NCBI GenBank assembly: GCA_964623885.1
Contig: CAZUVM010000142.1
Location: forward strand, 1-27,711
Direction: 5' to 3'
DNA: 27,711 nucleotides
Origin: an uncultured Verrucomicrobiota bacterium
Lineage (GTDB): Bacteria > Verrucomicrobiota > Verrucomicrobiia > Limisphaerales > UBA8199
The notes below the pieces were generated by a model that was given only the letters and a program-made list of their open reading frames with translations, was not told where the DNA came from and searched no databases. This document shows, piece after piece, positions 25-27,070 of this stretch (the stretch's first letter is position 1; each line of letters starts with the position of its first letter). The position numbers and the translations under genes were made by a program.

Positions 25-1113
25 TTACTCAACAAACCAGAGTTCCTCCCAATGTTTGTTTTCGCGCGCTTGCTTGAGGGCGGCAAGGTTTGCCAGTCCC
101 TGGCGTGTCCAAAACTGGCCGCGCCGCTTGAAGCGATTCTGGTGTCCGCTGCAGGCTGACTCCACCGCTCCACTGCCAATGGGCCAACCTCGTTTGGCGA
201 TTTCCTGGTAGTTCATCCGGTCGGCCTGATTGGCAAAATAGTTTTTCTGTTCCCGGACAAGGTTGGCGTTCTTGCCCCGCGGCACGGTTAAGCGCGCGAT
301 CCGGCTCAGACAGGTTTCTTGCTGCCCGTGCCGCAATTCATGCAAACGCTCCTCCACCCATGGCTTGGCCTGCTCTTCTGCATAAAGTGCTCGCCCCAAC
401 TCCCACAGGTGCTCGCTGGCGTGGTAGAAATCCAGCAACTCCTGCGCCTGGGCCCACCGGTCAGCCACGACATTCCAAATCCAAGCCGCTCCGTCGCCAA
501 CGACCAAAATCCACTTGGCCCGACCTAGACCCCGCCGCAGCGCTTCCCAATGGAGTCGTCGCCCCAATTCCACACCTCCTTCTCCTGGCCAAGACACGAC
601 CGCCTTCTCACTCAACACGCCACGGTCGGCAGCCGTGCGTGCTGCCTGGTCCTGAAGATAAAAGACGCCCATCTTCACCTCGTGCCATTCCACCCGCTTT
701 TTCTTGGTCTTTTTCATCCCGAAACCCGGCCCCCGATAGCGCGCCTGCCAGCCATCGAGCATGAAAACCGCCAATTCACTGGCCGCCCGTTGCGGCGTCA
801 GTTCCAGCACCCCACTCTCCAAACGCTTCTGCGTCTGTTCTTCGGCCCGCTGGCCCAGCCGTTGTGCCAGCACATGCAGCGTCGAGTCGTCCACCACACA
901 ACCCCACTTCTGCGCTACAGCCGCTGCCTCGCTATACGATCCTGTCGCCGTCAGCGTAAAGGCCAGCTTGTCCTCCAGCCCTGGGCTCATCTCCTGATGA
1001 GAGGATAAACCCCAAACCTCTCGTATCGGATAGCCCCACTCCTTGCGCTTGGGATCCCACCCATACCAGGCGACCACCTTAACAATGCCTACGTTGCTTC
1101 TTAGCATCAGCAC
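25..1113 (-). CDS. DDE transposase, catalytic portion (362 aa). Probably ISNCY-group (ISKra4/ISAzo13-like), family assignment uncertain
   Basis: The ORF fills the space between the inverted repeats. Motifs ILVVGDGAAWIWN, DFYHASEHLWE and WPIGSGAVES are reminiscent of ISKra4-type DDE transposases (recognised by eye, not searched). Confidence 0.7.
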   Translation of the reverse strand: MLMLRSNVGIVKVVAWYGWDPKRKEWGYPIREVWGLSSHQEMSPGLEDKLAFTLTATGSYSEAAAVAQKWGCVVDDSTLHVLAQRLGQRAEEQTQKRLESGVLELTPQRAASELAVFMLDGWQARYRGPGFGMKKTKKKRVEWHEVKMGVFYLQDQAARTAADRGVLSEKAVVSWPGEGGVELGRRLHWEALRRGLGRAKWILVVGDGAAWIWNVVADRWAQAQELLDFYHASEHLWELGRALYAEEQAKPWVEERLHELRHGQQETCLSRIARLTVPRGKNANLVREQKNYFANQADRMNYQEIAKRGWPIGSGAVESACSGHQNRFKRRGQFWTRQGLANLAALKQARENKHWEELWFVE

Positions 1114-3885: not shown

Positions 3886-5046
3886 GTGATGCCTACCGAT
3901 ACTGATTACATGAAGCTGGCGCTGCGCCTGGCGCGTCGCGGTTATGGCTTCACATCACCCAATCCAATGGTGGGCGCGGTGCTGGTAAAGAGCGGGAGAA
4001 TTATCGGTCGCGGCTGGCATCATCGGGCAGGCGAACCGCATGCCGAAATCGAAGCTCTTGGGAATGCGGAACGGAGAGGCCATGGTCCGCAGGGCGCGAC
4101 GTTGTACGTCACGCTGGAACCGTGCTGCACCCACGGCCGCACACCGCCCTGCACTGACGCGATTTTGGCAGCTGGGATCAAGCGTGTCGTCGTAGGAGCC
4201 ACCGATCCCAACCCGCGGCATTACGGTCGTGGCCTTGGGATTCTGAAGCAAGGCGGAGTTACAGTCGTTCACGGCGTTCTGGCTGACGAATGCACCGAAC
4301 TGAATGAGGCTTTCAATCATTGGATCGTAAAGGGAACGCCTTTTGTGACGGTCAAAGCCGCCATGACGCTGGACGGTAAAATTGCCACGGCGACCGGCGA
4401 ATCGAAGTGGATTACTTCGGCAAAAGCCCGCGCTCTTGGGATGCAATTGCGTCTGGGCGCGGATGCAATCCTTGTTGGGATAAACACCATTTTAGCAGAT
4501 GATCCCAGTCTCACGTTCCGCGGTTCCGGGGCAAAGCAACCTCACCTGCGCCGGATTGTTCTGGATTCCGAAGCGCGAACACCATTAAACGCGAAGGTTG
4601 TGTCTGATAAGCTGGCTCCGTTTACAACCGTCGTGACGAGCCGAGAAGCTCCACGCAACCGCATCGCAGTTCTGGCTCGGAAGGTGAATGTTTGGGTGGC
4701 CCCTACGACGGCAAGGCGTTTTTCAGGCAATCCGGGACGTCCGGCAATAGACTTAAGATGGTTGATGTGGAAGTTGGGTGCGGAGGGCGTCACCAACTTG
4801 CTGGTGGAAGGCGGCGGTGAGGTAAACGCCTCGTTCCTATTGCCTGGGCTGGCGCATCGCGTCGTCTTCTTTTACGCTCCGAAAATCCTGGGCGGAAGGG
4901 ATGCCCGCAAGGGCGTGGCTGGCGAAGGTGCGCGGACGCTGGCGGAAATGGTCCCGCTCACGGACGTAGCCTGGCACCGGTTGGGTCCCGACTGGCTGCT
5001 GACGGCGAAATGCGCACAAAGAAAGTCAGGAAGGAAAACCAAATAA
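3886..5046 (+). CDS. ribD: Bifunctional riboflavin biosynthesis protein RibD (pyrimidine deaminase plus reductase)
   Basis: HAEIEAL ... LYVTLEPCCTHGRTPPC zinc-binding cytidine-deaminase motif, followed by a RibD reductase C-terminal domain. GTG/ATG start at 3886/3889. Confidence 0.93.
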   Translation: MMPTDTDYMKLALRLARRGYGFTSPNPMVGAVLVKSGRIIGRGWHHRAGEPHAEIEALGNAERRGHGPQGATLYVTLEPCCTHGRTPPCTDAILAAGIKRVVVGATDPNPRHYGRGLGILKQGGVTVVHGVLADECTELNEAFNHWIVKGTPFVTVKAAMTLDGKIATATGESKWITSAKARALGMQLRLGADAILVGINTILADDPSLTFRGSGAKQPHLRRIVLDSEARTPLNAKVVSDKLAPFTTVVTSREAPRNRIAVLARKVNVWVAPTTARRFSGNPGRPAIDLRWLMWKLGAEGVTNLLVEGGGEVNASFLLPGLAHRVVFFYAPKILGGRDARKGVAGEGARTLAEMVPLTDVAWHRLGPDWLLTAKCAQRKSGRKTK

Positions 5047-5047
5047 C

Positions 5048-5659
5048 ATGTTTACGGGCATTGTGGAGGAGACCGGCACGGTCGAGAAAATCGTGTCAGG
5101 CAAAAAGGCAATCGAACTTACGGTGCGAGCGAAAGTCTGCGGGGGCGGGCTGAAGCTTGGGTCCAGCCTCGCGATTAATGGCTGCTGTCTGACGGTGGTG
5201 AAACTGGCGAAGCGCGGTGCGTTTCGCTTGGCGCGGTTTGATCTGCTCAAGGAGACGTGGCAGCGGACCAACCTGCAATTCGTCAAGCCGGGCTCGCTGG
5301 TCAACCTGGAGCGACCGTTGCGGCCGGACGGCAATCTCGGCGGCCATTTCGTGACCGGCCACATCGATGGTGTTGGGACGATTACGCGCTGGGAGCGACT
5401 CGGAAAAGATCATGTGCTGGATATTGCGGCTCCGGCGGAGGTCATGCGCTATATCGTTTACAAAGGTTCGGTGGCGGTCGACGGCATCAGTTTGACAGTC
5501 GCCGCGGCCCAGACAAAGAGCTTCCGAATCTGGATCATACCGCATACGTATGAGGTCACTGCCTTGAAGGAACGAAAGGTGGGCGATGCGGTGAATCTCG
5601 AGGCGGATCTGCTGGGCAAATACGTGGAGAAATTCGTCCAGGCGCGTGCCCGGCGTTGA
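5048..5659 (+). CDS. ribE: Riboflavin synthase alpha subunit
   Basis: MFTGIVEETGTV N-terminus and an internal duplicated lumazine-binding repeat (GHIDGVGTI). Starts 1 nt after the ribD stop. Confidence 0.93.
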   Translation: MFTGIVEETGTVEKIVSGKKAIELTVRAKVCGGGLKLGSSLAINGCCLTVVKLAKRGAFRLARFDLLKETWQRTNLQFVKPGSLVNLERPLRPDGNLGGHFVTGHIDGVGTITRWERLGKDHVLDIAAPAEVMRYIVYKGSVAVDGISLTVAAAQTKSFRIWIIPHTYEVTALKERKVGDAVNLEADLLGKYVEKFVQARARR

Positions 5660-6994: not shown

Positions 6995-7240
6995 CTATTC
7001 GGTCGCTTGCAGTTTTGGATCAAAGAAATGCGGGTCCACCGGTTGCAGGGTGGTATGGCAATCTCCGAGCCAGGCCTGGCCGGTGCTCGTGTCCATGATT
7101 AAAAACTGGGCGCCTGATGCGGTCGCCTGGAACCGGCCGATCTGGCCGCTTCCCGGTAACCCGGCTCCTAAAACCAACATCGAGCCTACCCCCAAACAAA
7201 GTCCCAGAATTGCGCCTGTAAATTGCTCCTTGAGTTTCAT
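6995..7240 (-). CDS. Small secreted hypothetical protein (81 aa from internal ATG) with signal peptide, directly downstream of and co-directional with the CotH giant
   Basis: MKLKEQFTGAILGLCLGVGSMLVLGAGLPG hydrophobic N-terminus, then a 50-aa mature part. The upstream part of ORF 6995..7387 is Pro/Ser/Thr-rich and probably not coding. Confidence 0.4.
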   Translation of the reverse strand: MKLKEQFTGAILGLCLGVGSMLVLGAGLPGSGQIGRFQATASGAQFLIMDTSTGQAWLGDCHTTLQPVDPHFFDPKLQATE

Positions 7241-7393
7241 AAGCAACACAAAATACGGCGAGGATTTGCAGGGTTGAATAGGGTTCATCCCGCTGAAATG
7301 CAGAGGAAAATCAATAGTGCGGCGTGGGGTGGGGACCGGGGTGGTTGAAGGGAGGAACAATGAAAGGGAGTAGCAGAAAGAGGACAAGAAGAG

Positions 7394-10300
7394 CTATGGA
7401 CTGAGGGAAACTTTGAGGCGATAGAAACGGGCAGTGGAGAGTGGATCGAAGAGGGTGACGAGGTTGGTGCCGGTGATGTTGGCGGCGTACGTGGACCAGG
7501 CGTTGCCGAAGGTGTCGAGTTTCTCGACTGTATAGGTGCGCCCCGCGCGCGGAGTGAATTGGAGGATGCAGAAAGAGCCGCTGACCGTGACCGAGTCGAA
7601 GTCGAGGAAATCGAGCCGATTAGTGGGGCTGGTGCCGGCGAGGTATTCCTGCCAATTATTGAATCGATCGCTATCAGGATCACCCAGGGCGCCGTTCGCG
7701 CCGGTGCTATCGAGCGGGTCGAGGCCATTGGCGATTTCCCATTCGTCCGGCAATCCATCGTTGTCAGAGTCCGCGGTCACCGAGGCCGGGTTCAATGCTC
7801 CAGGGTTGGGAGGACCGGCGGTCCAGTTTATAGGATCATCGGCAAAGCCAATGGCGGCGACTCGTTGGAGGGAGTTGCCGGTCGCGTCGGCGTTGGCTGG
7901 CCAGGGTGGAAGAGGTGAATAGTGGACTTCCTCGAGCAGCACGTAAGGTACGAATCCTGCCACAGGCGAAGGCGGGATTTCGGGTTTGTCTGGTTCGAGC
8001 AATTGGACATGGTCGCCTTGGTTGCCAAGATGCCCCTGGTATGGGCCATAAATGGGAGTCGAGGGCGGGAGGCGGTAGCGGTTGGTGAACCAATTGAGGG
8101 AGACGGGATCACCGATGGGATCGAAGCTAACGACGAGGAGATAAGAATGGGGCGGCATGGTGACGCCCAGCGGGAAGGTAAACTGGATACCACCGTCAAG
8201 TCGCCAGGCGTTTGTCGTGTGGAGCGGGTCGTAAAGTGGCGCGGCCTGGCCGCTGAAGTTTCGCAACTCGATGTATTCATCCAAAGTGTCAGTGTCCAGG
8301 CCGAGCTTGGGCGGAGAGTACATGATTTCGTTCAGGATTACCGGACCGACCTTGGGGCCGGCATTGGGAGCGCCCAGTGAATTGGCCTTCTGCAGAACAA
8401 AATGTTCCTTACCGTCGCTTGTAACATAACGGCCGAACGTGACGCCGTTGTGTTGCGCGCCGAATTTAAAGCCGTGTGAATAGCCGGTCAGATTCGTGCC
8501 ATCGCCTGAATAGAGATAGACCTCTTCGCCGAGCGAGCTAAGCGCGAAGGCATTGGAGCCTGTATTGAATTGGGATTCGTCGAACAGCGCAAAGCCGCCG
8601 GCGGCGATAATGGTGTTGGTGGGGATGCGGTATTTAAGTGGTTGTTGGCGGTCGTCGGTGAGGAACCAACCGCCGATCGGGGCGGGATTGGCGGTGGGAT
8701 TGAAGAGTTCGATCGTGTCGGACTGGGGTGGATCGGTGTGAGTGAGGGCTTCGTTAATGAGGATGGCTGGAATGCTGCCAGGAACAGGGTCCGATCCGCC
8801 GGGCGAGCCGTTAATCGCGGTGCTGGGACGCCAGCCTGCAGGATTGGCCCAGGAAGAAAACGGAGCGAATTCATTACGAATGACAAGGGAGAAACCCGGG
8901 CCGTCAGTCGTGGGATAGGTACCGTCATTGTAGGCGAAATCGAGGATGGGTTCGCGCAGCGGGCCTTCGAGGTAAAGTCGTTCTCCGCTATTGTTGAGGC
9001 TGCCGTCGTATTGGCCTGCGACGTTGGTCACGGCGGGGTAACGGGCCTGGAATGCAGCGAGGTTTTTGACGAGGACGACGTATTGTCCGGGGCTGAGGCT
9101 AGTAATGGCGTTGGTGGCGGTGAATGTGAAGTCAATGCCTTTGGTGAAACGGAAGCCCGGGAGTAAAAGCGGTTGAGCGCCGACGTTTTTCAGTTCGATG
9201 AATTCAAAATCGCCAGCGGCGTTCGTCCCCGAAGCCGGCGGAGCAGGATGATACATGATTTCGGTGATGACGAGCGGCGGAGTGGAAACAACATAAGTGG
9301 CGGCGGCAAGACCCGACCACGGGCTGGAGAGAGGCGGGTTGCCGGGCCCAGTAAGATTCTGGTGCGACGGATTCCAGTTGCGCGCGCAAACCCGAGCGTT
9401 GCCGTTGAGTGTGAGTACGAAAGGAGCATTCGCTGCGAGCGCGAATGGGGAGATCGCGCCGCCTGCCAGTCGCGGATCGGAGCCATCCAGCGTATAATAG
9501 GTCGTGGTGCCGGGCTCAGCACGGGGCGCGGAAACCGTGAGGGCGAAGCCTTGAGTAATCACGCCGCCGGCAGAACTGAGAAGAGGCAGGGTGAGGAAAT
9601 TCGTGTCGATAAATTCGAGACGGTATGCGAGCCAGATTCTCATGAAGTCGATCTCGCCCTGGTAAGTGCCGGGGAAACTGTGGGTGAAGGAGGTGTCGGG
9701 CCAACCGCCTGGAACCGACCAAAAGCCTGAGCGTGGGGTGGTATCGGAAGCGCCGGAGCCGGCCCAACGGGTGGACTGGCGAGGTTGCGCTTCGGCTACC
9801 TGGTTGGTGAACATCTCGATAATGGCGAAGAGCGAGTCGGTAGAGAAGGCGTCCTGACGCAGTTGCTGCCAGCGATCAATCCATTTTTGCCAGAAATCAG
9901 GGTCGTAAAACAGGATTGAGTACCACGGGTTAGCGAAAACGCTGCCGGGGTTGAAATAATCGGTGCCGTAATCGGTGCTGGTTGGGGAACCAAGGGGATT
10001 GGAACTCATCCAGGTGCGCGGATTCCAAGGGCGCCAGTCACCGGCGCTGGTGCCCAGAGAACGGTCAAAGTCCCACAGCGGTCCCATCGCGATCCGTTTA
10101 TTGCGGTCTTTAAAGAAATAGGCGCTCAACCGAAGGGCATCGGCATTGAGTGAGAGGACTTCGAGGATGTGATGGTCGATCCACGAATCCACATCGATCC
10201 ATGCGGCATAGCCGGTGACCGGGTCAGCCCAGTTCGGGGAGAAGAGGGAGTTATAGAAATTATTGAAGTAGTCGCTGATATAAGCTTCCTGAAGCGCGCG

Positions 10301-12964
10301 GCCCGAATAGCTGTAATAGTCGGTCATTTTAGGTTCGACGTAAACCATGGACTGGTTGGCCGCATAAAGGGTGCGTTCATCCGGATTGGCGGAATCGTTT
10401 TTCAACATGTAACCGCCGGTGATGGCGGGGTAATTGGTTTCGTTGGGATCGAGCTTGGGGATGTCGACGCGGCCCGGGTCGGCTTTGATCTTTTCTTCGA
10501 GGACATAGGTGCCGTAATAATTGCCGATGGGTGCGGCGGTGTAATAGATAGGGCCACCGTTGTAATTAGTGAACAGCTCGACCATCCGAACGTTGGAGGA
10601 ATAGCGACCGATGCGTCGGCTGAGCTCATGCATGAACGGATTGTGGATGAGCGGTTTGTCGAAATAATCCGGAGCGTAGAAGACCCAATCCGATTCGGCC
10701 GGCAGGCCGAGGAGATCGACTTTGAGGGGTTCATTGAATTCGTCCCAGGTTTCGACCGCATAACTGCTCTGAGGATTATTCTGGGTGGAACGGCCGCGGA
10801 TGTTGAAGCCCATCCGGGCAACGAGATCGGGCGGGTTGGTGAGGCACGCGCGGCCAAATGCGGTGCCGAAGACCATCATGACGCCGACCTGGTCGGCGGT
10901 GGCCGGGGGTTTGCCGGCATTGAAATTGCAGAACAAAAAAAGGGGCGCAGAGGAGGAGAAAGCCGCGGCGCCGGGAGTGAGCTGGACATAGGTGGCGCTA
11001 GCAGGCGGGCCGGGCCAAAAATTGGGCAGCGTGGAAAACGCTCGCGCGCGGACTTGGATATTGGTGGTGATGGAAAGCGGCCCGGAATAAAGCGGGCAGG
11101 ACGCGTTCGGCACGTTAGTAAGCGCAGCGGAGGCGGCATTGGTCACTAGGAAATAGCGAATAACGGCATTGGAACCAGCCAGGCCTAGGGAGAGATTGAA
11201 CGATTGCTGAAATGTGCCACTCGCCCGCGAGAAGCTGACAGCGGGGGCGAAGTTGGCGCCAACGGTGGCATTGGCGGCGCCGGGTGTTGCGTTGGTGAAG
11301 TAGCCTATGATTGAAGGATCAACCCGGTCGCGGCCATACGAGACATCGTCGTATTGCTGGGGATAATTGGCGAAAGTCGAGATAACACTGACGCCGTTGG
11401 AATAGACCAGGCCAAGGAAGTTACCTGCAGCTTTATCGAGTTTGAAATTCGTGTGCAGCGGGGCGGCAGGGTTCGTGCGGTCATTGCCGGACGCCCAAAT
11501 CAACAAGTAGGATTTGCCGGGCATCGTCACTCCTCGCGGGATCTGCCATTTCGTCAGCCGGGTGGGATTGTCAGTAAGATACCACCGACCGATGTCGACG
11601 GCGGAATCGCCGGAATTGAAGAGTTCAAGCCAATCGGAGAAATGACCGTCATCGTCGGCAATCGTGTGGGTGTTGCCAGCCATGAATTCGTTGATACGGA
11701 CGTTGCTCGCGATGGCGGAAGGATCGAGTGTATAGGAGTAGCTGCCACCCGCGAAGCGATTCGAGTTGGCGGTGAGATCGGTAATGCGCTGGCTCGGACT
11801 CCAGGATACCGAAACGAGACCGACAGGTGGCTGGGGAAAGCTGAAAATATAGATATCGGAGCCGTAGGCGGTGACACCAGTGGCAGCGACTCCGGCGATC
11901 AGGAGGTCGGCGGCGCGGACACCCTGGACACCTTCGCTGAAGTCAACTTCGAGCTGGGTGAAGCTCGCCACGGTGCCGGGTTGAGGAAGAATTTGGGAAA
12001 CGACTGGCGCGTTGGTGTCTCGAAGCCGGGGATAGTAAGAAAGATCGAGAGTGAAGCCGAACGTGATATCAGAGCTGCCGGAATTGACCTGGTGTACCTC
12101 GGCGGCTACGACGTTGTCGCCTGCAGTGACGTTAGTGAGGGGAAGATTGAAATACTCGAGGGCAGGATCGTTTACCGTGCGGGTGGCCCATGCATTCCAG
12201 GCGGTATTCGTGACGCCCAGGCGGAAAGCTTCTTGGCCATTGAGATAGAAAGCGGCACCGTCATCGATGACGGTCGTGGCCTGCAGGACAGGATTAACGA
12301 ACTGCGCGATCGACGATGGGACATTGAAATGAGTCCGGAAATAGAAGGTGCAGGCATTGGTGCCGAAAGGCTTCATGTTGAGCACTGTGCCGATTGGCAA
12401 CCCGGCGACGGTGAGGCGATTGGTAGGGCTGCCGTTAAGCCATTTGGCGTCAAAAACCTCAAGACCTGAAAGCCAGCCGAGCTGGGTATCGTTGTAGCCG
12501 ACCTGCATCCAGGAAGTTCCGATATTGGTGCCGGTTTGGTTGTATGCCCACGTGCTGGCAAACGATAGCAGTTGGGTGACCTGCTGCGAGCCGGTGATGC
12601 CGAGGTCAACGGAGAGCACGGCGACCTGGCTGGTGGCGGCGCCGGAGGAGTTGGTAACGGTGGCGACGAAACCCGCGCCGGAGTCGTTGCTCAGAACGGT
12701 GGCGAGAGAATAGGCGCTGGAGGTGGCGCCCGAGAGCCGAGCGCCGTCGCGGTACCATTGAAAAGCCAGAGGAGCGGTACCGCTCGCGCCGACGGCAAAA
12801 GTGACGGAGCTGCCGTAGAAAATGGTCTGACTGGAAGGCTGATTTGTAATCGCCGGCGCGGCGGCCTGGAGCTGAAACGCGGAGGCCAGGAGCAGACCAT
12901 GCAGGAGCAGGGAGGCCGACCGGCGGACCCTGGCCACGGCACGGTTACGGCAAAGGCGCACCAT
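7394..12964 (-). CDS. Giant secreted CotH-family (atypical protein-kinase-like) protein, 1856 aa. Signal peptide, Ig-like domain, jelly-roll, CotH core, Fn3/CHB_HEX_C-like domain, four lamin-tail domains and a C-terminal TSP3-like + FYR module
   Basis: Ig-like PAITNQPSSQTIFYGSSVTF...FQWYRDG (about 12605-12856). CotH core (about 9965-10942) with NIRGRSTQ, VELFTNYNGGPIYYTAAPIGNYYGTYVLEEKIKADP and AMGPLWDFDRSLG. Lamin-tail signatures INEFMAGN...DWLELFNSGDSAVDIGRWYLTD (about 11345-11707), plus ITEIMYHP...FEFIELKN, ILINEALTH...TIELFNP and ILNEIMYSP...EYIELRNF (about 7865-9283). Confidence 0.88.
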   Translation of the reverse strand: MVRLCRNRAVARVRRSASLLLHGLLLASAFQLQAAAPAITNQPSSQTIFYGSSVTFAVGASGTAPLAFQWYRDGARLSGATSSAYSLATVLSNDSGAGFVATVTNSSGAATSQVAVLSVDLGITGSQQVTQLLSFASTWAYNQTGTNIGTSWMQVGYNDTQLGWLSGLEVFDAKWLNGSPTNRLTVAGLPIGTVLNMKPFGTNACTFYFRTHFNVPSSIAQFVNPVLQATTVIDDGAAFYLNGQEAFRLGVTNTAWNAWATRTVNDPALEYFNLPLTNVTAGDNVVAAEVHQVNSGSSDITFGFTLDLSYYPRLRDTNAPVVSQILPQPGTVASFTQLEVDFSEGVQGVRAADLLIAGVAATGVTAYGSDIYIFSFPQPPVGLVSVSWSPSQRITDLTANSNRFAGGSYSYTLDPSAIASNVRINEFMAGNTHTIADDDGHFSDWLELFNSGDSAVDIGRWYLTDNPTRLTKWQIPRGVTMPGKSYLLIWASGNDRTNPAAPLHTNFKLDKAAGNFLGLVYSNGVSVISTFANYPQQYDDVSYGRDRVDPSIIGYFTNATPGAANATVGANFAPAVSFSRASGTFQQSFNLSLGLAGSNAVIRYFLVTNAASAALTNVPNASCPLYSGPLSITTNIQVRARAFSTLPNFWPGPPASATYVQLTPGAAAFSSSAPLFLFCNFNAGKPPATADQVGVMMVFGTAFGRACLTNPPDLVARMGFNIRGRSTQNNPQSSYAVETWDEFNEPLKVDLLGLPAESDWVFYAPDYFDKPLIHNPFMHELSRRIGRYSSNVRMVELFTNYNGGPIYYTAAPIGNYYGTYVLEEKIKADPGRVDIPKLDPNETNYPAITGGYMLKNDSANPDERTLYAANQSMVYVEPKMTDYYSYSGRALQEAYISDYFNNFYNSLFSPNWADPVTGYAAWIDVDSWIDHHILEVLSLNADALRLSAYFFKDRNKRIAMGPLWDFDRSLGTSAGDWRPWNPRTWMSSNPLGSPTSTDYGTDYFNPGSVFANPWYSILFYDPDFWQKWIDRWQQLRQDAFSTDSLFAIIEMFTNQVAEAQPRQSTRWAGSGASDTTPRSGFWSVPGGWPDTSFTHSFPGTYQGEIDFMRIWLAYRLEFIDTNFLTLPLLSSAGGVITQGFALTVSAPRAEPGTTTYYTLDGSDPRLAGGAISPFALAANAPFVLTLNGNARVCARNWNPSHQNLTGPGNPPLSSPWSGLAAATYVVSTPPLVITEIMYHPAPPASGTNAAGDFEFIELKNVGAQPLLLPGFRFTKGIDFTFTATNAITSLSPGQYVVLVKNLAAFQARYPAVTNVAGQYDGSLNNSGERLYLEGPLREPILDFAYNDGTYPTTDGPGFSLVIRNEFAPFSSWANPAGWRPSTAINGSPGGSDPVPGSIPAILINEALTHTDPPQSDTIELFNPTANPAPIGGWFLTDDRQQPLKYRIPTNTIIAAGGFALFDESQFNTGSNAFALSSLGEEVYLYSGDGTNLTGYSHGFKFGAQHNGVTFGRYVTSDGKEHFVLQKANSLGAPNAGPKVGPVILNEIMYSPPKLGLDTDTLDEYIELRNFSGQAAPLYDPLHTTNAWRLDGGIQFTFPLGVTMPPHSYLLVVSFDPIGDPVSLNWFTNRYRLPPSTPIYGPYQGHLGNQGDHVQLLEPDKPEIPPSPVAGFVPYVLLEEVHYSPLPPWPANADATGNSLQRVAAIGFADDPINWTAGPPNPGALNPASVTADSDNDGLPDEWEIANGLDPLDSTGANGALGDPDSDRFNNWQEYLAGTSPTNRLDFLDFDSVTVSGSFCILQFTPRAGRTYTVEKLDTFGNAWSTYAANITGTNLVTLFDPLSTARFYRLKVSLSP
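7397..7771 (-). other. C-terminal 125-aa module of the CotH giant. TSP3-like acidic repeat (DSDNDGLPDEWE...DPDSDRFNNWQEYLAG) plus a beta-rich domain ending RFYRLKVSLSP
   Basis: Same architecture and signature residues as the C-terminus of the 2881-aa protein (17393..17986). Confidence 0.6.
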
Positions 12965-17389: not shown

Positions 17390-20300
17390 CTACTGGGTTA
17401 GTGCTCGATAGAACTTTCGGTTGGGGTCAGGCGTATCCTGGAAGTACATAGCAGGCGTGGAGCACAAGAAATTGGTGAGCGGGGCCCAATTGAAAAGGTC
17501 GGTGGAGGTCTGCACCTGGTAAGCAAAGCCCGGGACGCCCTCGAGGCTGACAGTGATAGAGTTGCTGCCCATGCTCGCAGACAAAGGCAAGCGCAGCTTC
17601 GGACCTGGGACGACAGACAGCGGGGCGACGCGGTAGAACCGGCGGACCAAATTGGTGCTGACAGAGTCGCTAAGGACCATGGGTATATTGGTGCAGGTGA
17701 ATTTGAGGATGGCTGTCCAATCGGTCAGATTGCTGCTGGCAAGTAACACATAAGAATTGCCGAGATTACCGAGCACAGACAATTGGAAAGCGCCACTCGG
17801 ACCCATTTGGCCGCGGGTGAAGTGCAGCGGGTCGAACACAAGCGGATTCAGCCCGGCACGATATTCTTGCAAGTTGGTGAACCCGTCGCCGTCGGGGTCG
17901 TCGTTTGCGCCATTGTTCGGCGCATTGAGCGAACCGAAATACTGCATTTCCCACGAGTCGGGCAGTCCGTTGTTGTTTCGATCATCAGCCATGGTCGTGC
18001 GGACCAGGAAGATTTGGCCGCCGGTAGTGCGGAAGGCCAGGCCGTCGTTCCCCCAGCGAATGAGGCGGGTGGGCGAGCCGGACACGTTGCTAATCGTTAT
18101 TGAGCTCACCAATTGCAGGTTGGTTATGTCCAAAGCCGAAAGCGTCCAGGTTGGACCACTGCCCGTAAGATAAAAAGCGCGCCAATCGGCTTCATCTGGC
18201 GCAACCAGGCCGCTGTAGGAAACGGTAGTGATATTGGTGCCGGCAAATGGGTCAAAGACTCGACCGCCGGGAGTGAACATCCGGCCTGCGCCATACTTGA
18301 TTTCCCAATCCGGGTACGTGACGACCGTATTGCGCACGTCGGAGAGCAGCGTGGCGCCAGACGCGTCGATGGCGATGTGGCGGAAGCCCGTAGGATACGT
18401 CGAATAGCAATTGGACGAGGATGTCAGCGCGAGGAAATAGTTCTGATTGTATTCGGTCGCACCGACCACGTTCGAGCGCTGCACGCCGTCATCATAAACT
18501 GCGAGCGTCGAGTGGGCCGTCGCCACGACCGCATGCGGATTATCCGGGAGCACGGCGATATCGCTGACATAATCGAAGCGGGTGGGAAATTTGAGGTCCG
18601 CAACGCGGTTGCTGACATCGACCCGCTGAATGGAGCTGTCAGCGTCCAATCCGGCATAAACGTATTGGCCGTTAGCGGAAACGGCGAGCTTGTCCGGCTC
18701 GGTGCTGGTGGGAATCGGAGCATCATAAGCACCGGTCAAAGGATTAAACGAGAGCAGGGAATTACCGAGATCGGCCTGGGCATTGGGGACGCTGGCGAAG
18801 ATCCGATTGGCAGAAGCATCCCAAGCGATATCACTGGTGACCTGCCAAATGACCGTCACCGTATCGGGAGCGGCGGCGCGGCCAACGGAGATGTTAAGCG
18901 TAGCGAGATTGTTGGAAGGATTGGGATCAATGGTGTCGCTGGTGGCGCTGGCGCGCAGCAGGGCAAGGCCGGCATTAATGCCGATGAAGTTGAGATTAAC
19001 CGTAGCGCTGGCCCCGCTGGTGAGATTGCTCAACCAGCAAACCAGGCCCCCCGCTGACTGGGTCCAGGCACCGCTAGTGGGGACAACCGAAGTCAGCAAT
19101 GCGTTATTAGGCAGGGTTTGGGCCAGAACGACATTGGACGCGTCGTTGGGGCCCTGATTCGAAATCCTCAGAGTGCAACTGAAAGTGTTGCTCACCATGG
19201 CAGGCAAGCCGGTATTGATGGCGTTGAGCGCAAGATCGGCTGGCCCACCCGAAGGAATGAGCGAACTGCGGGCGATGGCGATTTGGGTGGAGTTGGCGCG
19301 GAAAGCGAGGCCGTTGGTGCCCCATTGAACCAGCCGGCCGGTGGCGTTTGAGACACCGAGCGTGAAGGTTGTCCCGATTGGGAGGAGTGTCGCCAGATCA
19401 TATGCAACAATCCGGCCGGGGCTGGATTGGAATTGCCAAAACCGACCCGCGGCGGTGCTGCCTGCGACCGGCCCTCCGCCGGTGCCGGGCAGGCCGATCC
19501 CGCGCTCGGGATCAGCAATGCCGCCGCCCGCGAAGACCAACCCACCAGCGAAAGTGAAATGTGCGCCGATGATGGAAGGTGAATAATCCTTGATTGTGGT
19601 GAGCCCGGAGGAGTCCACTTGCATCACCGAGAAATCGGAGGGGCTTAGAGAAAGCATGTTGCCGTAAAGGCGAGTGCCCGATTCGTTCCATTCAACGCTG
19701 TCGCCGCCGCCACCGTTGGTGCGGGCAATGCCGTTGTCGTAAATGAAAAAACCGCGTTCGTACGGACTGATCCCAGGCTCCCACCACCCAGCCGCTACGG
19801 TTGTCGAATTTCCCGGCATGGCCTTGATGTCCAGGACCGAATAGCCCTGATTTGTCCACATCAGATCAATTGTGCGGGCGAGCGTATCGAAGCGATAGAC
19901 GCCGGCGCCGGGTTGCGGCTGGAAGATGGCGTTGGTGCCGTTGTTGGCGGCGTGGATGTAACGGCCGTCGCCAGAGGTGGTGAGTTGCACGAAGCCGGCG
20001 TTGCCGATCGGAACGGCGGGTTCAGACTGATAAAGAAGTGGGTCGGTCGCGATAAGCGTGCCGTTGCTGCTAACGAGCGACCAAAGGCGCCGGGTGATCG
20101 GGCTATAGACAAGATCGGCGGCGTTAATATTCAGCAGATAGACGTTGGGCGGCACAAGGGCGAAAGGCACGCTTTGGCCCGTGATCCCGTTGGAGTCTGA
20201 AACACGCAGACTTACGACTGGCTCAGTGGTGAAGAGGGTAACATTGCCGGTCCATTGGCCGGAGGCGAAAGTGACATTCGTTGGTTGCAGAATAATCGGC

Positions 20301-23300
20301 CCGCCGGAACCGAGCGGGGAAAGGGTGACGGGCCCTCTATAAGCGGTGATCGGGCCATCAAAAATATCCCGGGCAGAAATCGTGACGCTGAAGGGCACGG
20401 TGCTGGTGCGCGGGTTGGAGATCGCGGCGAAGGTGAAATGATCGATTTCATTGTCTAGCAGCAGAACATTCGTGGAAATTGAGGTGAAGCCGGAGGCAGC
20501 CGCAGCGATGCTGATATTTTCCGAGCCGTTGTAGTTTGTGTCATCGATAATAGTCGCCGGGAATGAGACGCTGGTTTGACCGGCTGAAATAGTGGCGGAC
20601 TCCGGAACGAGCAGGCGATTGGTGTCCGATGAGTTCAGAACAAGGGCGAGATTGGTAGTCAGCGTGCCGGAAATCCGGAGCGTATAAGATGTGGGTGTAT
20701 CACCTTCGCTGACCTGAGCCGGGCCGGAGATGCGGAGGAGCGTGTCCTCGTTGTCGGTGACCGATATGAAATTGGTGGCGGGGATAGAATTGGGCAACGA
20801 AGCCGAGACCGCAACCTGGCGCGTGCCGTTTATTTTGTTGTCATCGACAAGGGTGACATTGAAAACCGCGGAGGTGATGCCTGGAGGGAAAATGACCGTG
20901 GGTTGAACGACGACGGATGAATCGCTCGAAGAGAGATTTACGGTGAGATAATAGGAGGCCGGGACGCTGGAGTATAGGTGACCGGCATTGAGCAAAGTGC
21001 CTGCGGTCTCGGCGGCAGTTGATGGCAATGAGAGAGTGAGCGTTGTGGAATTGGTGTCGTCCACCTCGATGTAAGTTGAGCTGCCGACAAGATTCGTTGC
21101 CGTCGCGGAGATTCTCACTGATTGCGGTCCGGTCAACAGGGAATCAGCAATCGCGCTGAAGGAGAAAGTTGCGTTCGTCTGGCCGGCGGGAATGATCACG
21201 CTGCTGGGAACCGACAGGCGAGCAGGCCAGCTCGAGGTTAGCGCGATGCTGCTGGCTTGAGCTAGAAGGATTGGGATGACTACCTGGCCGGTGTAAGAGC
21301 CGCCTTCGTTCACAGCGGCGGGAACGAGGAGCCGGGCATCAATCGGCCGGACATCGAATTTGCCGCTTGCGCCTAAGTGCAGATTGTTGTCGCTGATAGT
21401 GAAGTAAGCATTCGTGGCGACTGGATTGATGGTGACGGTGTTGGACCAAACGCCTGCACTGAAGGTGAGATTGCTCGGACTCACGGGCAGGTTCGTGTAG
21501 CTCTGAGTGAAGACGTTAATCTCATCAAACCAGGCCGCACCGGTGTCGGTATTTTGCAAAGCGATGGCGTTGACGTAAGCGGGCCGGTAAGGGAAGGAGA
21601 CGTTGGTGGCCACAAGGACACCATCCAATAGCATTGTGGCAACGTAGCGTGTCCAGTCCAACTGGAGGTCCACGCGATACCAGCGATTCGACTGGTAAGC
21701 CACACCATAGAATATGTTTCCACCGTAGAGACCAATGCGGCCGTCGCGGCCCATGTAAAAATCCACCGCCGCCGAACCACTGACGCCGGCGAAAAGGCGG
21801 CCACAAAGGGCGTTCGTCTGCGCGGCGCGGGTGTAAAATGAGATCCCTGTGGGGAAGCAGTTCGAGAAGGCCTTAGTGAGCGAATAGTTGTAAATATAGC
21901 TGGAGGAGGCCGATTTGCCCGTGAGTCGCAAACTGTGCAAGCCGGCTGCGGCGAAGTCGGTCACATTCGAACAAAGCAGCCCGGGTGAGGATTGGTTCGT
22001 CCAGCCGGTCAGTAAGCCGTCCTCAAAATCGGCGGCGAAGCGATTGCTGTAGTACTGGTCGGTTTGTGCGGTCAGTAACGGCGAGCCCGAATAGTTGCTG
22101 ACCATGATGCCGAGATAATCAACTGCGGTCACCGTAACGGGGAATGGGCGTCCCGCGAACTGCGGTGTTGGCACAGAGTTAAAAACAAAATGATCAAGCC
22201 GGCCAGCCGCCGCATCATCATCAATAATGGTGCAATCGGCGCGATTGGTACCCAGCGTGGCGTAGGAGGCCGCGGTAAGGATGACGGAGAACGTCCGGTT
22301 TGATTGGAACACGGTATTGCCAAGAACGCCGATTGCGATCGAGAAATTGGTCGAGCCGGCGGGGAGAATTACCGAGGAGTTGGCGGAGACATAATCGTTC
22401 GTGGAATACGCGGTGCCATCCTGCGTGTGGTAAGTCACCACCACGTCATAAATCGCGGGCTTGGAGAGAGTGAGTTGGAAAATGCCATTGGTTATGCCAC
22501 TATCGCCCTCGAGCAGCGAGGTGCCGTAAATCCAGACGACCGGAGGCGGATCATCATCAACAATCGTGCCGATCGCACCCCCAATCGCGATCTGCGCGTT
22601 GACAGGATTAGTCAGCGTGACGCTAAACATGCGATTGGGTTGATTGAGGATGTTGTCGATGGCGAAGACTTTGATGGAAGTATTGGTCGCGCCCGAAGGA
22701 AGGATAACGGTGCCGTTACTGCCAATATAATCACTGCCGTTAGTGGCGGTCCCATCGCTGGTAAAATAGTCCACTGACAATGCCTGGCCACTCGGGCCGG
22801 ACGAGGTGACGCTGAAGACCATACCCGTGGCAGCGGCCGCCGCTTCGGCGCCGATGGCGGAGGAGATCCACAGCAAAGGCAGCTCTATGTGATTCGACAA
22901 TGCCACAGAGTTGTCTGCGGGATTCAGGTCCAACATTGACGATAAAACGCTAAATTGATTGGTAAAATCGCCCGGAATATCGGCACGGCAAACCAGCGTG
23001 GCGGTTAGATTCGAGCCCGTCGGCACCGAGCCGATCGTCCAGTTTATCGCCCCGGCGTTGTTGGAGATACTGCCTTGCAGATTTGTCGCGGAAAGGAACG
23101 TGAGGTTCGGCGGCATGTCATAATGAACGAGCGTGTTCGCCGCGGTTGACGGGCCCCGATTGGTCACGGACAGATTGAATTGGAGTTTCATTCCCGGGCG
23201 CAGCGGCGGCGTTCCCTGCACCTGGGACGATGCCGTCAGCGCCAGATCGGCAACGGCTTGGATGTCCAGCGGGTTGGAAAAACCTTTATGCCCTTCGGTG

Positions 23301-26035
23301 TCGTCAGCGATCAGGACCACATTTGAGGCCCCTTGCAGCGGAGTGATCGTTCCTGTCCACACGCCATTGGCGAAACCGTTCGTCAGCACCGTGGGCGCGA
23401 GCGCCGGATAGGCGATTTGAACGTTGTCCGCGTAAAGAAAGTAATCGTTCGGGATGATGTACCACGGTGCGCCATAAGAGACGATCAAGCTCAAGGTATA
23501 AACCCCGTTGCTTGGCGCCGTAAAAGGCAGCTCGATTCTTCCGCGAGAGCTTTGGCCGCCGCAAAGGTCGGGCATGTTCCAATAGCCATTGGAATTCCCG
23601 ATCCCGAGTGCCGCCTGCGCGCCGACCCAGCAACCGCCTCCTTCCTGCGCGCTGGCCAGGTCCACGCTGAGCGTATAGGTGATACCACCCGCCAACTGGA
23701 CGTTTTGCGAGATGCCATCGGTGCCCGGATTGATGCGCATCCGAAAAGCGCTCGAAAGCCGCCCATCTCCAACCACATCGTAGGGTATCAGCTCGTAAGG
23801 CCCGGGATTATCCCCGTTCGTCAAGGGCGCCCACGGCGCCAGTGTCGGGAGCTCGAAATCGAGGTTGGTGGCGACCACGTTCGTAGTGGAAGTGAGGACC
23901 CGGACCGGGTTCGAGAAATTGGTGACTACATCCCCGAACGCATCACGAGCGGTGATGGTCAGCGGAAAGGCCAAACCCTGCGTCTGCGCGCCCGTGATTG
24001 GCGCGATGTCAAAGTGATGCACGACTCCCGGGAACCCGTCGTCATTGAGGATTGTGCCCGTGGCTTGCCCGACGTTGATGATGGCGTATTGCGCATTGGT
24101 CAGATTGAGCGTGAATGTTTCGTCCGGCTCGGGCACCAGGTCGCCAATCGCTTGCACGATTAGTGTCTTGTTGGTCTCGCCCGGCTGGTAGCTCAGCGTC
24201 CCCGCGATCGGCACGTAATCTGTTCCAGCCTGCGCCGTCTGGTCGCTCGTGAAGTAATCCACGGTGACGCTATCGAATGAGGCGGCAGAGAGGATCACGT
24301 TGTACACGAGATTCACCACTCCGCTGTCCCTTTCGACTACCACTGGCGTCATGGCAGAAATACTGAGCGTCGGCGTGGAATCATCATTGCTGATCGTTCC
24401 TTGCGCCGTCGAACGGGCCATCCACGCCTGCATCGGCTGGCTCAGGTTCAGGTAAAGCGTCTCGTCCGGTTCCAGGACCTGGTCGCCTAATATGGGCACC
24501 TGCACGACCTGGTTGGTGTTGCCCGGCGGAAAAGTCACCGTGCCGGTGATGGCCACATAATCCGGCGTCCCCACACCATAAGCAAAAGATTTTGCCGTGC
24601 CATCGCTGGTGGCGTATTGCACCGTGACGGGGAAAGTGGGCGTGGTGGTCAGCCAAACATTAAAATTCATGAAATTCGTCCCGGAATTGCCCTCCACCAT
24701 CGCTGTATCTGAGACACCTACGCCAGGCACGTCGACTGTTCCGTTCGGATCATAGACTTCGGCATTCGTCATCGAGAACGGATCGCTCTGAGAGGTCATG
24801 CCCCCCGCGATGAGCACCGTCCCGTCAGGCAGCAAACAGGCAGTGTGGTTCTCGCGTTTGGCCGTAAGATTGGCAGTCCACGTGAACGTATCCGTCACCG
24901 GGTCGTAAAGTTCAGCGCTCGACAGGGAATCATATGTGGCACCCCAGGTGCCCTGGCCTCCGGCGATCAGCACCTTCCCGTTCTGGAGCAAGGTGGCTGA
25001 ATGATAAGCCCGCGGCTGCAGGAACATGCTGGCCGGCACCGACGTGGCCGTATTTGTGTCGTAAATGTAGGCCCGACCGTAACCGAAATAGAGGAACTTG
25101 CCGGTGCTGGGCAGGTAGATGCCGTTGTAAGCGCATTGCATGGTGGGCGCCAGGCTGAAGGTCCCTGTGCCCGGATCGAATAGTTCGTTCGTGGTCAACG
25201 CGCCCCCGCACAGCAAAACCGTTCCGTCCGATTGCGGTGTGGCATAGTGCCCGTAGCTGTAAACCAGCATGTCGCCCACCTGTTGAAATGTTTGGGTGGC
25301 GGGGTTGTAGACCTCGGCCGTCTTTGCTCCCGTGGCATTGCCGCCCCCGGCCAGCAACACCAGACCGCTATTGAGCAACGTGGCCGATCCGTCCTCGTGC
25401 ACCCCAATCATCGTTCCCGCCGGCAAGTTAAACGTTCTCGCGGCGACGTCATAGAGGTCCGTAACGTGGCCGAGATGCTGCCCCACCAGCAGTACCTGGT
25501 TATTCGTCATCAGCGTCAACGTCGGGCCCCAATAATAAAGGGCATGGGCGGCGCCAACGCCGAAAAAGCGGGCGGGCGTCACGCTGGTGACCCACAAGGC
25601 TGCATTATTTGTCGCGACCGGGTCACCGGTATCTGAGGAAACGGCGGCGAAATTTGTGAGCGAGCCAAGCGTCGTGGCCTGCAACTCAAAAGTCAGTGTT
25701 GCCGTGGCGCCGAAGGGGAGCGTGCCCAAAGCACTAGTCACGACGCCGCCAGATTGAGTAACGGCACCCTGGCTGGCGGATGCGCCGATGAAACTGGCAT
25801 TGGCAGGCAGGAGATTGGTAACGAGCACATTGGTAGCCGCCATCGGCCCGTAATTATAATTATTATAGACGCTGACAGTGACCTTGAAATATTGGCCGAG
25901 ACTGACCGCCGATGGCGCGCTGCTGAAGGAAAGCTGGAGGTCGGCGGTTTGGGCGGTCATTGGACTCGGCCTGAGGGCGAGAGTCGCCAGGCAAAGCGAG
26001 CACAGACGTGCAAGCATCCCGTTAGGGGTCTTCAT
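17390..26035 (-). CDS. Giant secreted adhesin-like protein, 2881 aa. Signal peptide, DUF11, Kelch-like beta-propeller, at least 4 Calx-beta domains, LamG-like jelly roll, a duplicated [beta-propeller + DUF11] unit, and a C-terminal TSP3-like + 2x FYR module
   Basis: AGGAGA Shine-Dalgarno about 9 nt upstream of the ATG at 26035. Signal peptide MKTPNGMLARLCSLCLATLALRP. DUF11 (TNFAAVSSDTGDPVATNN). Repeated ELYDPxTxTF / GTVLIAGG Kelch-like blades. Calx-beta signatures (VDYFTSDGTA..GSDY..GTV.LPSG.T...I.V..IDD). Two propeller units ending ..LVQWGTNGLAFRAN.. and ..LIRWGNDGLAFRTT.. Confidence 0.88.
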   Translation of the reverse strand: MKTPNGMLARLCSLCLATLALRPSPMTAQTADLQLSFSSAPSAVSLGQYFKVTVSVYNNYNYGPMAATNVLVTNLLPANASFIGASASQGAVTQSGGVVTSALGTLPFGATATLTFELQATTLGSLTNFAAVSSDTGDPVATNNAALWVTSVTPARFFGVGAAHALYYWGPTLTLMTNNQVLLVGQHLGHVTDLYDVAARTFNLPAGTMIGVHEDGSATLLNSGLVLLAGGGNATGAKTAEVYNPATQTFQQVGDMLVYSYGHYATPQSDGTVLLCGGALTTNELFDPGTGTFSLAPTMQCAYNGIYLPSTGKFLYFGYGRAYIYDTNTATSVPASMFLQPRAYHSATLLQNGKVLIAGGQGTWGATYDSLSSAELYDPVTDTFTWTANLTAKRENHTACLLPDGTVLIAGGMTSQSDPFSMTNAEVYDPNGTVDVPGVGVSDTAMVEGNSGTNFMNFNVWLTTTPTFPVTVQYATSDGTAKSFAYGVGTPDYVAITGTVTFPPGNTNQVVQVPILGDQVLEPDETLYLNLSQPMQAWMARSTAQGTISNDDSTPTLSISAMTPVVVERDSGVVNLVYNVILSAASFDSVTVDYFTSDQTAQAGTDYVPIAGTLSYQPGETNKTLIVQAIGDLVPEPDETFTLNLTNAQYAIINVGQATGTILNDDGFPGVVHHFDIAPITGAQTQGLAFPLTITARDAFGDVVTNFSNPVRVLTSTTNVVATNLDFELPTLAPWAPLTNGDNPGPYELIPYDVVGDGRLSSAFRMRINPGTDGISQNVQLAGGITYTLSVDLASAQEGGGCWVGAQAALGIGNSNGYWNMPDLCGGQSSRGRIELPFTAPSNGVYTLSLIVSYGAPWYIIPNDYFLYADNVQIAYPALAPTVLTNGFANGVWTGTITPLQGASNVVLIADDTEGHKGFSNPLDIQAVADLALTASSQVQGTPPLRPGMKLQFNLSVTNRGPSTAANTLVHYDMPPNLTFLSATNLQGSISNNAGAINWTIGSVPTGSNLTATLVCRADIPGDFTNQFSVLSSMLDLNPADNSVALSNHIELPLLWISSAIGAEAAAAATGMVFSVTSSGPSGQALSVDYFTSDGTATNGSDYIGSNGTVILPSGATNTSIKVFAIDNILNQPNRMFSVTLTNPVNAQIAIGGAIGTIVDDDPPPVVWIYGTSLLEGDSGITNGIFQLTLSKPAIYDVVVTYHTQDGTAYSTNDYVSANSSVILPAGSTNFSIAIGVLGNTVFQSNRTFSVILTAASYATLGTNRADCTIIDDDAAAGRLDHFVFNSVPTPQFAGRPFPVTVTAVDYLGIMVSNYSGSPLLTAQTDQYYSNRFAADFEDGLLTGWTNQSSPGLLCSNVTDFAAAGLHSLRLTGKSASSSYIYNYSLTKAFSNCFPTGISFYTRAAQTNALCGRLFAGVSGSAAVDFYMGRDGRIGLYGGNIFYGVAYQSNRWYRVDLQLDWTRYVATMLLDGVLVATNVSFPYRPAYVNAIALQNTDTGAAWFDEINVFTQSYTNLPVSPSNLTFSAGVWSNTVTINPVATNAYFTISDNNLHLGASGKFDVRPIDARLLVPAAVNEGGSYTGQVVIPILLAQASSIALTSSWPARLSVPSSVIIPAGQTNATFSFSAIADSLLTGPQSVRISATATNLVGSSTYIEVDDTNSTTLTLSLPSTAAETAGTLLNAGHLYSSVPASYYLTVNLSSSDSSVVVQPTVIFPPGITSAVFNVTLVDDNKINGTRQVAVSASLPNSIPATNFISVTDNEDTLLRISGPAQVSEGDTPTSYTLRISGTLTTNLALVLNSSDTNRLLVPESATISAGQTSVSFPATIIDDTNYNGSENISIAAAASGFTSISTNVLLLDNEIDHFTFAAISNPRTSTVPFSVTISARDIFDGPITAYRGPVTLSPLGSGGPIILQPTNVTFASGQWTGNVTLFTTEPVVSLRVSDSNGITGQSVPFALVPPNVYLLNINAADLVYSPITRRLWSLVSSNGTLIATDPLLYQSEPAVPIGNAGFVQLTTSGDGRYIHAANNGTNAIFQPQPGAGVYRFDTLARTIDLMWTNQGYSVLDIKAMPGNSTTVAAGWWEPGISPYERGFFIYDNGIARTNGGGGDSVEWNESGTRLYGNMLSLSPSDFSVMQVDSSGLTTIKDYSPSIIGAHFTFAGGLVFAGGGIADPERGIGLPGTGGGPVAGSTAAGRFWQFQSSPGRIVAYDLATLLPIGTTFTLGVSNATGRLVQWGTNGLAFRANSTQIAIARSSLIPSGGPADLALNAINTGLPAMVSNTFSCTLRISNQGPNDASNVVLAQTLPNNALLTSVVPTSGAWTQSAGGLVCWLSNLTSGASATVNLNFIGINAGLALLRASATSDTIDPNPSNNLATLNISVGRAAAPDTVTVIWQVTSDIAWDASANRIFASVPNAQADLGNSLLSFNPLTGAYDAPIPTSTEPDKLAVSANGQYVYAGLDADSSIQRVDVSNRVADLKFPTRFDYVSDIAVLPDNPHAVVATAHSTLAVYDDGVQRSNVVGATEYNQNYFLALTSSSNCYSTYPTGFRHIAIDASGATLLSDVRNTVVTYPDWEIKYGAGRMFTPGGRVFDPFAGTNITTVSYSGLVAPDEADWRAFYLTGSGPTWTLSALDITNLQLVSSITISNVSGSPTRLIRWGNDGLAFRTTGGQIFLVRTTMADDRNNNGLPDSWEMQYFGSLNAPNNGANDDPDGDGFTNLQEYRAGLNPLVFDPLHFTRGQMGPSGAFQLSVLGNLGNSYVLLASSNLTDWTAILKFTCTNIPMVLSDSVSTNLVRRFYRVAPLSVVPGPKLRLPLSASMGSNSITVSLEGVPGFAYQVQTSTDLFNWAPLTNFLCSTPAMYFQDTPDPNRKFYRALTQ
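17393..17986 (-). other. C-terminal 198-aa module of the 2881-aa protein. TSP3-like acidic repeat (NNNGLPDSWE...DDPDGDGFTNLQEYRAG) plus two tandem beta-rich domains, ending RRFYRVAP and RKFYRALTQ respectively
   Basis: Aligns motif-for-motif with the CotH giant C-terminus (7397..7771). Confidence 0.6.
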
Positions 26036-26953: not shown

Positions 26954-27002
26954 GTGGTCAAGATGCTGGGTTTGAAAAAGGAAGCCAACTTGAAACCTTG
27001 CG

Positions 27003-27070
27003 CGGAGCGCGGACAGTCCTGTCCGCAGCAACATTCGAACTTTGCTGCGGACAGGACTGTCCGCGCTCCG
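27003..27070. repeat. Near-perfect 68-bp palindrome: 29-bp arm CGGAGCGCGGACAGTCCTGTCCGCAGCAA, central CAttcgaaCT, then the exact reverse-complement arm. Each arm contains the nested palindrome GGACAG-tc-CTGTCC
   Basis: Read directly from the sequence. Only the 2+2 nt flanking the central TTCGAA break perfect dyad symmetry. Located between the mobA-like and dsbA-like genes. Confidence 0.7.

Follow-up and report, generated by a model that had tools for sequence, protein, structure and literature searches.

A divergent Fn3-type beta domain at the C-termini of unrelated exported Verrucomicrobiota proteins, a candidate export or surface-attachment handle

The genomic stretch investigated here, 27,711 nt from an uncultured Verrucomicrobiota bacterium and as a whole referred to as the window, harbors two giant genes, its largest and both on the minus strand, the products of which share a C-terminal tail. 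The first (7394..12964) encodes a CotH/LTD protein of 1856 aa, which according to its translation and a Pfam scan is composed of an Ig domain, four LTD domains, a CotH kinase-like domain and CHB_HEX_C/Fn3_assoc. The second (17390..26035), analysed in the same manner, encodes an adhesin-like protein of 2881 aa with three DUF11 domains, Kelch repeats and four Calx-beta domains, and the N-termini of both proteins are signal-peptide-like by inspection. The CotH tail is encoded by exactly positions 7397-7771, with the first TSP3 Asp codon at 7771 and the last codon at 7397, and runs in the order DSDNDGLPDEWE, 18 residues, DPDSDRFNNWQEYLAGTSP and a 73-aa beta segment. The latter is a C-terminal Fn3-like beta domain (7397..7615, minus strand, aa 1784-1856) that ends in ARFYRLKVSLSP at the stop codon, as delimited by the hidden Markov model (HMM) envelope in the stop-to-stop open reading frame (ORF) and by alignment with the adhesin copies. 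It is preceded by a TSP3-type acidic calcium-loop repeat pair (7625..7771, minus strand, aa 1732-1780, DSDNDGLPDEWE ... DPDSDRFNNWQEY), which matches TSP3_bac (PF18884) at E=2.2e-5. The adhesin tail is analogously arranged, with DRNNNGLPDSWE, 15 residues, DDPDGDGFTNLQEYRAGLNP and then two beta segments in tandem. Here, the TSP3-type pair (17843..17983, minus strand, aa 2685-2731, DRNNNGLPDSWE ... DDPDGDGFTNLQEY; TSP3_bac E=0.0013) is followed by a penultimate beta domain of "A-type" (17609..17836, minus strand, aa 2734-2809, with the end RRFYRVAPLSVV, containing RRFYRVAP; alignment and HMM) and by the terminal copy (17393..17608, minus strand, aa 2810-2881; HMM and AlphaFold2 (AF2) model), which finishes with RKFYRALTQ directly before the stop codon.

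Comparing the two whole proteins with each other by BLASTP, we recovered a single significant alignment, which covers the tail (34% identity, E=7e-8; aa 1732-1850 of the CotH protein and aa 2685-2803 of the adhesin), while all other segments gave E>=0.4. Likewise, no Pfam family is common to both giants except TSP3_bac, which remains below the cut-off in each tail. The original prediction, made from the sequence of the window, that the two proteins share tail motifs and have no other domains in common is therefore borne out. It had also assigned one copy of the entire module to the CotH protein and two to the adhesin, of which the two beta domains of the adhesin are confirmed; considering that the adhesin has just one TSP3 pair, however, the duplication concerns the beta domain alone. 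Judged from these sequences, the module is made up of two separable parts, an optional TSP3 pair and a beta domain of about 70 aa that ends in RFYR.

The TSP3 pairs display the DxDxDG..D..E motif by inspection, and score 24.7 bits (CotH) and 19.0 bits (adhesin) against TSP3_bac, for which the cut-off is 25. Weak matches were also found to the TSP3 regions of the NCBIfam models Amuc_1099 and MtsD. The D-x-D-x-D-G-x-x-D-x-x-E loops resemble those of bacterial TSP3 repeats (PF18884; also the Amuc_1099 family and MtsD), yet they score at or below the cut-off, and they accompany the C-terminal domain only occasionally. Indeed, a TSP3 pair precedes the beta domain in merely 5 of 105 genomic ORFs and 12 of 110 representatives (~5-11%), where it is often part of a TSP3-A-B cassette equivalent to that of the adhesin, an arrangement also present in the representatives P0008, P0011, P0017, P0018, P0022 and P0040. 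The repeat is for this reason not part of a universal tag, and by its distribution represents a separate, optional spacer in front of the beta domain. Consequently, the proposal that a TSP3-like acidic repeat belongs to a common tag holds only as far as TSP3_bac-type repeats are present in both giants; their rarity in front of the domain among relatives counts against the tag in the form in which it was first put forward.

We then turned to the beta domain itself, for which a profile HMM (A2) was generated from seven sequences, the three window copies and four close homologues, and searched against 1.84 billion protein cluster representatives. At E<=1e-3, this exhaustive search recovered 14,740 representatives, and 735 were left at E<=1e-10, as compared to just 5 and 12 matches for a word-indexed protein search with the short domain. 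With so many clusters matched by a profile of the window copies and their homologues, the likeness of the two tails is, at the sequence level, beyond chance. The consensus of the family, G..Y.lqaSTnL..W..l....t.....f.D..a.N...RFYRa..P, spans about 70 residues. No Pfam or NCBIfam model matches the window beta domains even at E<=10, and when 107 diverse members were scanned singly, no Pfam family reached below an E of ~0.007 and no NCBIfam family was matched by more than one member. The comparison with Pfam/TIGRFAM C-terminal sorting models that had been proposed hence shows that no sorting model, or any other, covers the domain, and we found no description of it in the literature searched. The beta domain belongs to a very large family that lacks a curated model and is present on many different exported Verrucomicrobia proteins. 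A 620-aa ORF on the plus strand of one locus (L017), which is paralogous to a carrier protein, has at its end a diverged copy (...YYLESTTNLSPPVVWST...STFFRYLVQ at the stop codon) that the HMM missed at E<=1e-3; as such terminal copies escape detection, the family count is an underestimate.

The position of the domain was assessed in three samples: the top representatives, genomic loci and a second protein search. Among the top representatives, a list biased towards multi-copy proteins (2-11 copies), the last copy lies at most 6 residues from the protein end in 137 of 149 cases, typically as RFYRAVxP. For the genomic sample, a scan with the pattern [TA]N[YF]x[RQ]RFYRA yielded 79 loci, to which flanks of at most 10 kb per side were added; this narrow selection favors the N[YF]x[RQ]RFYRA subfamily and thereby skews the taxonomic sample. 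Six-frame stop-to-stop translation of these loci and the window gave 105 ORFs carrying the domain, 95 of them with a single copy, and 101 end 4 residues or less from the stop codon. Congruent with this, approximately 26 secondary occurrences were present in the locus flanks, independent of the selection by the pattern and including all 8 on the opposite strand, and at least 23 of them are terminal. So are the last copies (6 aa or less from the end) of 111 of the 113 new proteins from the second protein search. The restriction to C-termini, proposed at the outset as a test, is accordingly found in 92-98% of relatives across the three samples. Moreover, 4-5 residues separate FYR from the protein end in 88 of 101 ORFs, and the final residue is Pro in 66 of 101, which in part reflects the subfamily sampled. 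Tandem copies are frequent, with two in the adhesin and 2-7 in relatives. A rare internal domain was noted in a 1443-aa ORF on the plus strand of locus L012, where the 453 residues that follow RFYRAILAS are 60% identical to a neighboring 971-aa ORF. This points to a fusion by read-through, or to an error of assembly, rather than to a truly internal domain.

The cargo is diverse: the N-terminal parts of long carriers match, in Pfam, GH31 with malectin, LRR/BspA, LVIVD beta-propellers, CARDB, Laminin_G_3, CBM_4_9, PPC, fn3 and Kelch/Calx-beta/DUF11. The range is hence one of unrelated exported proteins, including the CotH protein and the Kelch/Calx-beta/DUF11 adhesin of the window, an outcome in favor of the tag. 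Record names of relatives are uninformative ('hypothetical protein', 'internalin A', 'cadherin-like domain-containing protein [Verrucomicrobiae bacterium]'), and a member of the 90% cluster of P0017, which has the architecture of the adhesin, is named 'DUF11 domain-containing protein [Pedosphaera sp.]'. Almost all loci stem from metagenome-assembled genomes (MAGs) of Verrucomicrobiota (Pedosphaera, Limisphaerales and 'subdivision 3'), a range that, owing to the narrow scan pattern, applies to the sampled genomes. Nine loci (L005, L020, L023, L025, L029, L046, L058, L066 and L073) display the Verrucomicrobia-type domain in MAGs titled 'uncultured Bifidobacteriaceae', 'Klebsiella sp.' or 'Candidatus Saccharibacteria', probably as a result of wrong taxonomic labels. 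Two or three carrier genes are often located less than 20 kb apart (L022, L064, L019 and L050), as in the window, and additional carriers occur at about 1 per 45 kb in the 1.17 Mb of sampled flanks, a density that hints at a large number of carriers per genome.

Next, the structure of the last ~70 aa was predicted, as had been advised. Single-sequence AF2 modelling of the 202-aa adhesin tail was unusable, with a predicted local distance difference test (pLDDT) score of 31, and was replaced by a model of the last adhesin copy based on a 107-sequence alignment (pLDDT 84.3). This represents a six-stranded beta-sandwich, with the last strand at residues 66-71 of 72, the structural neighbors of which show a generic Ig/Fn3 fold. 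The relation to Fn3 is also apparent in sequence. A few of the high-scoring HMM matches, proteins with many internal repeats (P0006, P0084, P0085 and P0100), are canonical fn3 arrays that match only profile positions ~25-71, via ...GY.IEVS.DG..W......T.Y.HTGL..GT.RHYRVSA..., and the units of which match Pfam fn3 at E~1e-12 to 1e-13. Using hhalign, the family alignment (A3) was aligned to genuine fn3 units with 89% probability (E=2e-6), covering fn3 columns 11-80 of 100. These four proteins and P0103 are giants with 11-22 near-identical fn3 repeats (GY.IEVS.DG.SW...HYRVSAIN), which by sequence are, among internal repeats, the nearest relatives of the C-terminal domain, and which point to its origin. 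The fn3 model (PF00041), on the other hand, gave no match in the three window copies at E<=10, and is not among the 25 listed of the 36 Pfam families matched by the 107 members (E<=1). We conclude that the beta domain belongs to the Fn3 superfamily, as a divergent and shortened form for which a curated model is lacking. Since the alignment extends only to fn3 column 80 of 100, up to the F strand, the G strand is left without counterpart, and in the model the domain appears to lack this last strand and to end where the F strand of canonical Fn3 ends. Compared to PF00041 domains, to which homology is detectable by hhalign, the C-terminal domain is hence shorter (~70 aa versus ~90 aa), with six predicted strands and no G strand, possesses its own motifs, STNL..W and RFYRa..P, and is almost exclusively terminal, whereas fn3 may occur anywhere in a protein.

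A relation to CBM32/F5-F8 type C (discoidin) domains was considered as well. The beta domain matches a CBM32/discoidin profile of the PDB at E=0.0025, and 9 of the 107 members match F5_F8_type_C_2, with E>=0.0066. However, the PDB match is local, comprising ~40 residues of a jelly-roll of 130-150 aa, and the domain is half that length, while genuine fn3 units match in a similar manner. We therefore rejected discoidin homology.

What function may such a domain have? Its terminal position, the constant length of the tail after FYR, the range of cargo, the lack of a match to any known model and the signal-peptide-like N-termini of both window proteins are the observations that speak for the originally predicted sorting or anchoring tag. 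Derived from these sequence data, our best reading is that the beta domain serves as a shared export or surface-attachment handle for unrelated cargo, for which our confidence is evenly balanced. In this scenario, Sec export would come first, following which the folded C-terminal domain would act as the common handle. One shared partner would recognize it on otherwise unrelated cargoes, and through this partner the cargo would either be passed across the outer membrane or be held on it. The likeliest recognition surface would be formed by the conserved, partly solvent-facing R-F-Y-R, which in the model lies on an exposed last strand, and by the fixed tail of 4-5 residues. Considering that RFYR is situated on an exposed last strand of the model, at a fixed distance from the C-terminus and with the G strand missing, recognition through edge-strand pairing is conceivable, although this mode is speculation. 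The logic would then be analogous to that of the C-terminal domain in type IX secretion systems (T9SS) or of non-covalent wall-binding repeats, with homology to neither; position and cargo follow the T9SS pattern, and the tandem copies are reminiscent of anchoring repeats. A bolder version can be formulated, in which a hitherto undescribed pathway for outer-membrane secretion or surface display, specific to Verrucomicrobiota (possibly extending to the wider Planctomycetes-Verrucomicrobia-Chlamydiae group), uses the domain as its address tag. A translocon or anchor would supply the missing G strand in trans, by donor-strand complementation on RFYR, and in this one step tether dozens of unrelated enzymes and adhesins per cell. 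This version we deem unlikely.

Several observations weigh against a handle. When the 2,246 ORFs encoded by the 79 loci and the window were clustered, no neighbor family proved recurrent, the commonest being present in 8 of the 79 loci; a peptidase or outer-membrane gene co-occurring with the domain, one of the checks proposed for the tag, was accordingly not found to recur near these loci. Within the window, no gene is a candidate peptidase, outer-membrane or secretion component, which agrees with the initial statement that no processing-enzyme gene is visible there. The remaining window genes are of housekeeping type (UPF0236 transposase-like, Dabb, GDSL-like, thioesterase, DinB, DUF2721, SPFH, DsbA-like and MobA-like). 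Furthermore, a crude signal-peptide heuristic was positive in only 50 of 78 full-length carriers. Paralogues without the domain exist, and in those compared we found no known alternative anchor in its place, and one divergent copy that the HMM had missed. The modelled Ig/Fn3 fold is generic, and tandem copies are more readily reconciled with a role in binding or spacing than with that of a pure export signal. The case of an ordinary Fn3 domain at arbitrary positions, named at the outset as one that would speak against a tag, is touched upon by the Fn3 descent, yet the subfamily is not found at arbitrary positions. Overall, the tag proposal retains its support from position, cargo and the missing known model, and is weakened by the TSP3 repeat not being integral, the generic fold, the missing machinery and the tandem copies.

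Some neighboring genes of the two giants deserve mention. Directly upstream of the adhesin gene, on the same strand, resides a gene for a DSBA-like thioredoxin (26297-27034, minus strand; Pfam DSBA, E=1e-10), which may represent a disulfide-forming helper for the giant exported adhesin. Downstream of the CotH gene, a 130-aa ORF (6995-7387, minus strand) starts 7 nt after the stop codon and includes a hydrophobic stretch, GAILGLCLGVGSMLVLGAG; no Pfam match was recovered for it, and it could encode a small membrane or secreted partner, or not be a gene. A UPF0236-family (transposase-like) ORF (25-1113, minus strand) is found at the window edge beside housekeeping genes, and ORFs at 3886-5659 are riboflavin-gene-like, as judged by eye only.

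The main rival explanation is that the domain is an ordinary structural or ligand-binding Fn3-like domain (stalk, spacer, adhesion or CBM-like), added C-terminally in this lineage and without a role in sorting or anchoring. Such a function is congruent with the Fn3 homology and generic fold, with the frequent tandem arrays of 2-7 copies, with the weak local CBM32/discoidin likeness (E=0.0025; 9/107 members) and with the absence of a locally co-occurring machinery gene at the 79 loci. On unrelated cargo, however, generic domains do not keep to the final 70 residues in 92-98% of cases. The proteins here stop at a fixed 4-5 residues past the last strand, and the CBM32 likeness extends over ~40 residues of a fold of 130-150 aa and is seen in genuine fn3 units too. 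We regard a purely structural or binding role as a serious possibility, although a doubtful one.

Alternatively, the C-terminal domain may assist export or act as an intramolecular chaperone and be removed once secretion has taken place, in the manner of the PPC pre-peptidase domain. A precedent is the C-terminal FnIII domain of CbsA from Xanthomonas oryzae, which binds SecB, is required for export to be efficient and is no longer found on the secreted enzyme (PMC9190976). CbsA resembles the carriers described here in having a C-terminal Fn3-type domain on an exported protein, and the strict C-terminal location on Sec-type exported proteins is compatible with such a function. It differs in being a single proteobacterial enzyme with a canonical FnIII domain, linked to SecB-dependent transport over the inner membrane and not to a genome-wide tag. 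In addition, tandem copies and giant adhesin cargo are untypical of such pro-domains, neither PPC (PF04151) nor fn3 models match, and a conserved cleavage motif is lacking upstream of the domain, where the junctions are heterogeneous. Hence, we judge an export-assisting pro-domain to be decidedly improbable.

Verrucomicrobiota are abundant polysaccharide degraders of soil and water. For the surface delivery of their giant enzymes and adhesins, the libraries searched offer no sorting signal model as an explanation. A domain of more than 14,000 clusters, devoid of a Pfam or NCBIfam model and restricted to the last 70 residues of unrelated exported proteins, constitutes the type of signature that initially led to the recognition of PEP-CTERM/exosortase and of the T9SS C-terminal domain. 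Should the domain be a tag, the surface proteome of these organisms would become readable by sequence alone, and the tag would point towards a machinery that may be found by phylogenetic profiling and provide a handle for surface display. Should it merely be a terminal Fn3 variant, a curated family model would still be deserved, to annotate thousands of 'hypothetical' tails.

Finally, does the domain belong to a known class of sorting signals, i.e. the T9SS C-terminal domain, PEP-CTERM, LPXTG or GlyGly-CTERM? The extreme C-terminal position would be in agreement with this, as would the beta-sandwich, which is similar in size to that of T9SS. Nevertheless, neither TIGR04183/Por_Secre_tail (PF18962) nor any other sorting model matches at E<=10 or across the 107 members, on which grounds T9SS membership was rejected. 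The tails, RFYRLKVSLSP and RKFYRALTQ, possess no hydrophobic helix and match no NCBIfam sorting model; lacking the combination of motif, transmembrane helix and basic cluster, the domain is not of the PEP-CTERM, LPXTG or GlyGly-CTERM type. We therefore consider membership in any of these classes extremely improbable. In its working, by analogy, the domain would nonetheless be closest to the T9SS C-terminal domain, with which it has in common a folded beta-sandwich of ~70-100 aa, carried at the very C-terminal end by many Sec-exported proteins whose cargo domains are unrelated, and numerous paralogues dispersed in the genome with no adjacent machinery. Unlike the T9SS domain, which adopts a 3+4 seven-strand fold (PMC11285876), it is modelled with six strands, and it differs further in the missing sequence match, in that no T9SS domain is among its listed top structural neighbors, in the frequent tandem copies and in the hosts, which at the loci sampled are Verrucomicrobiota and not Bacteroidota. 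T9SS hosts are Bacteroidota/FCB with the core components PorK/L/M/N, Sov and PorU/V, where the PorU sortase removes the C-terminal domain and the cargo is attached to anionic LPS. By descent, the domain described here belongs to the Fn3 superfamily. Aggregated, the known kind is a C-terminal beta-sandwich on diverse exported cargo, and what is new is this Fn3-derived family.

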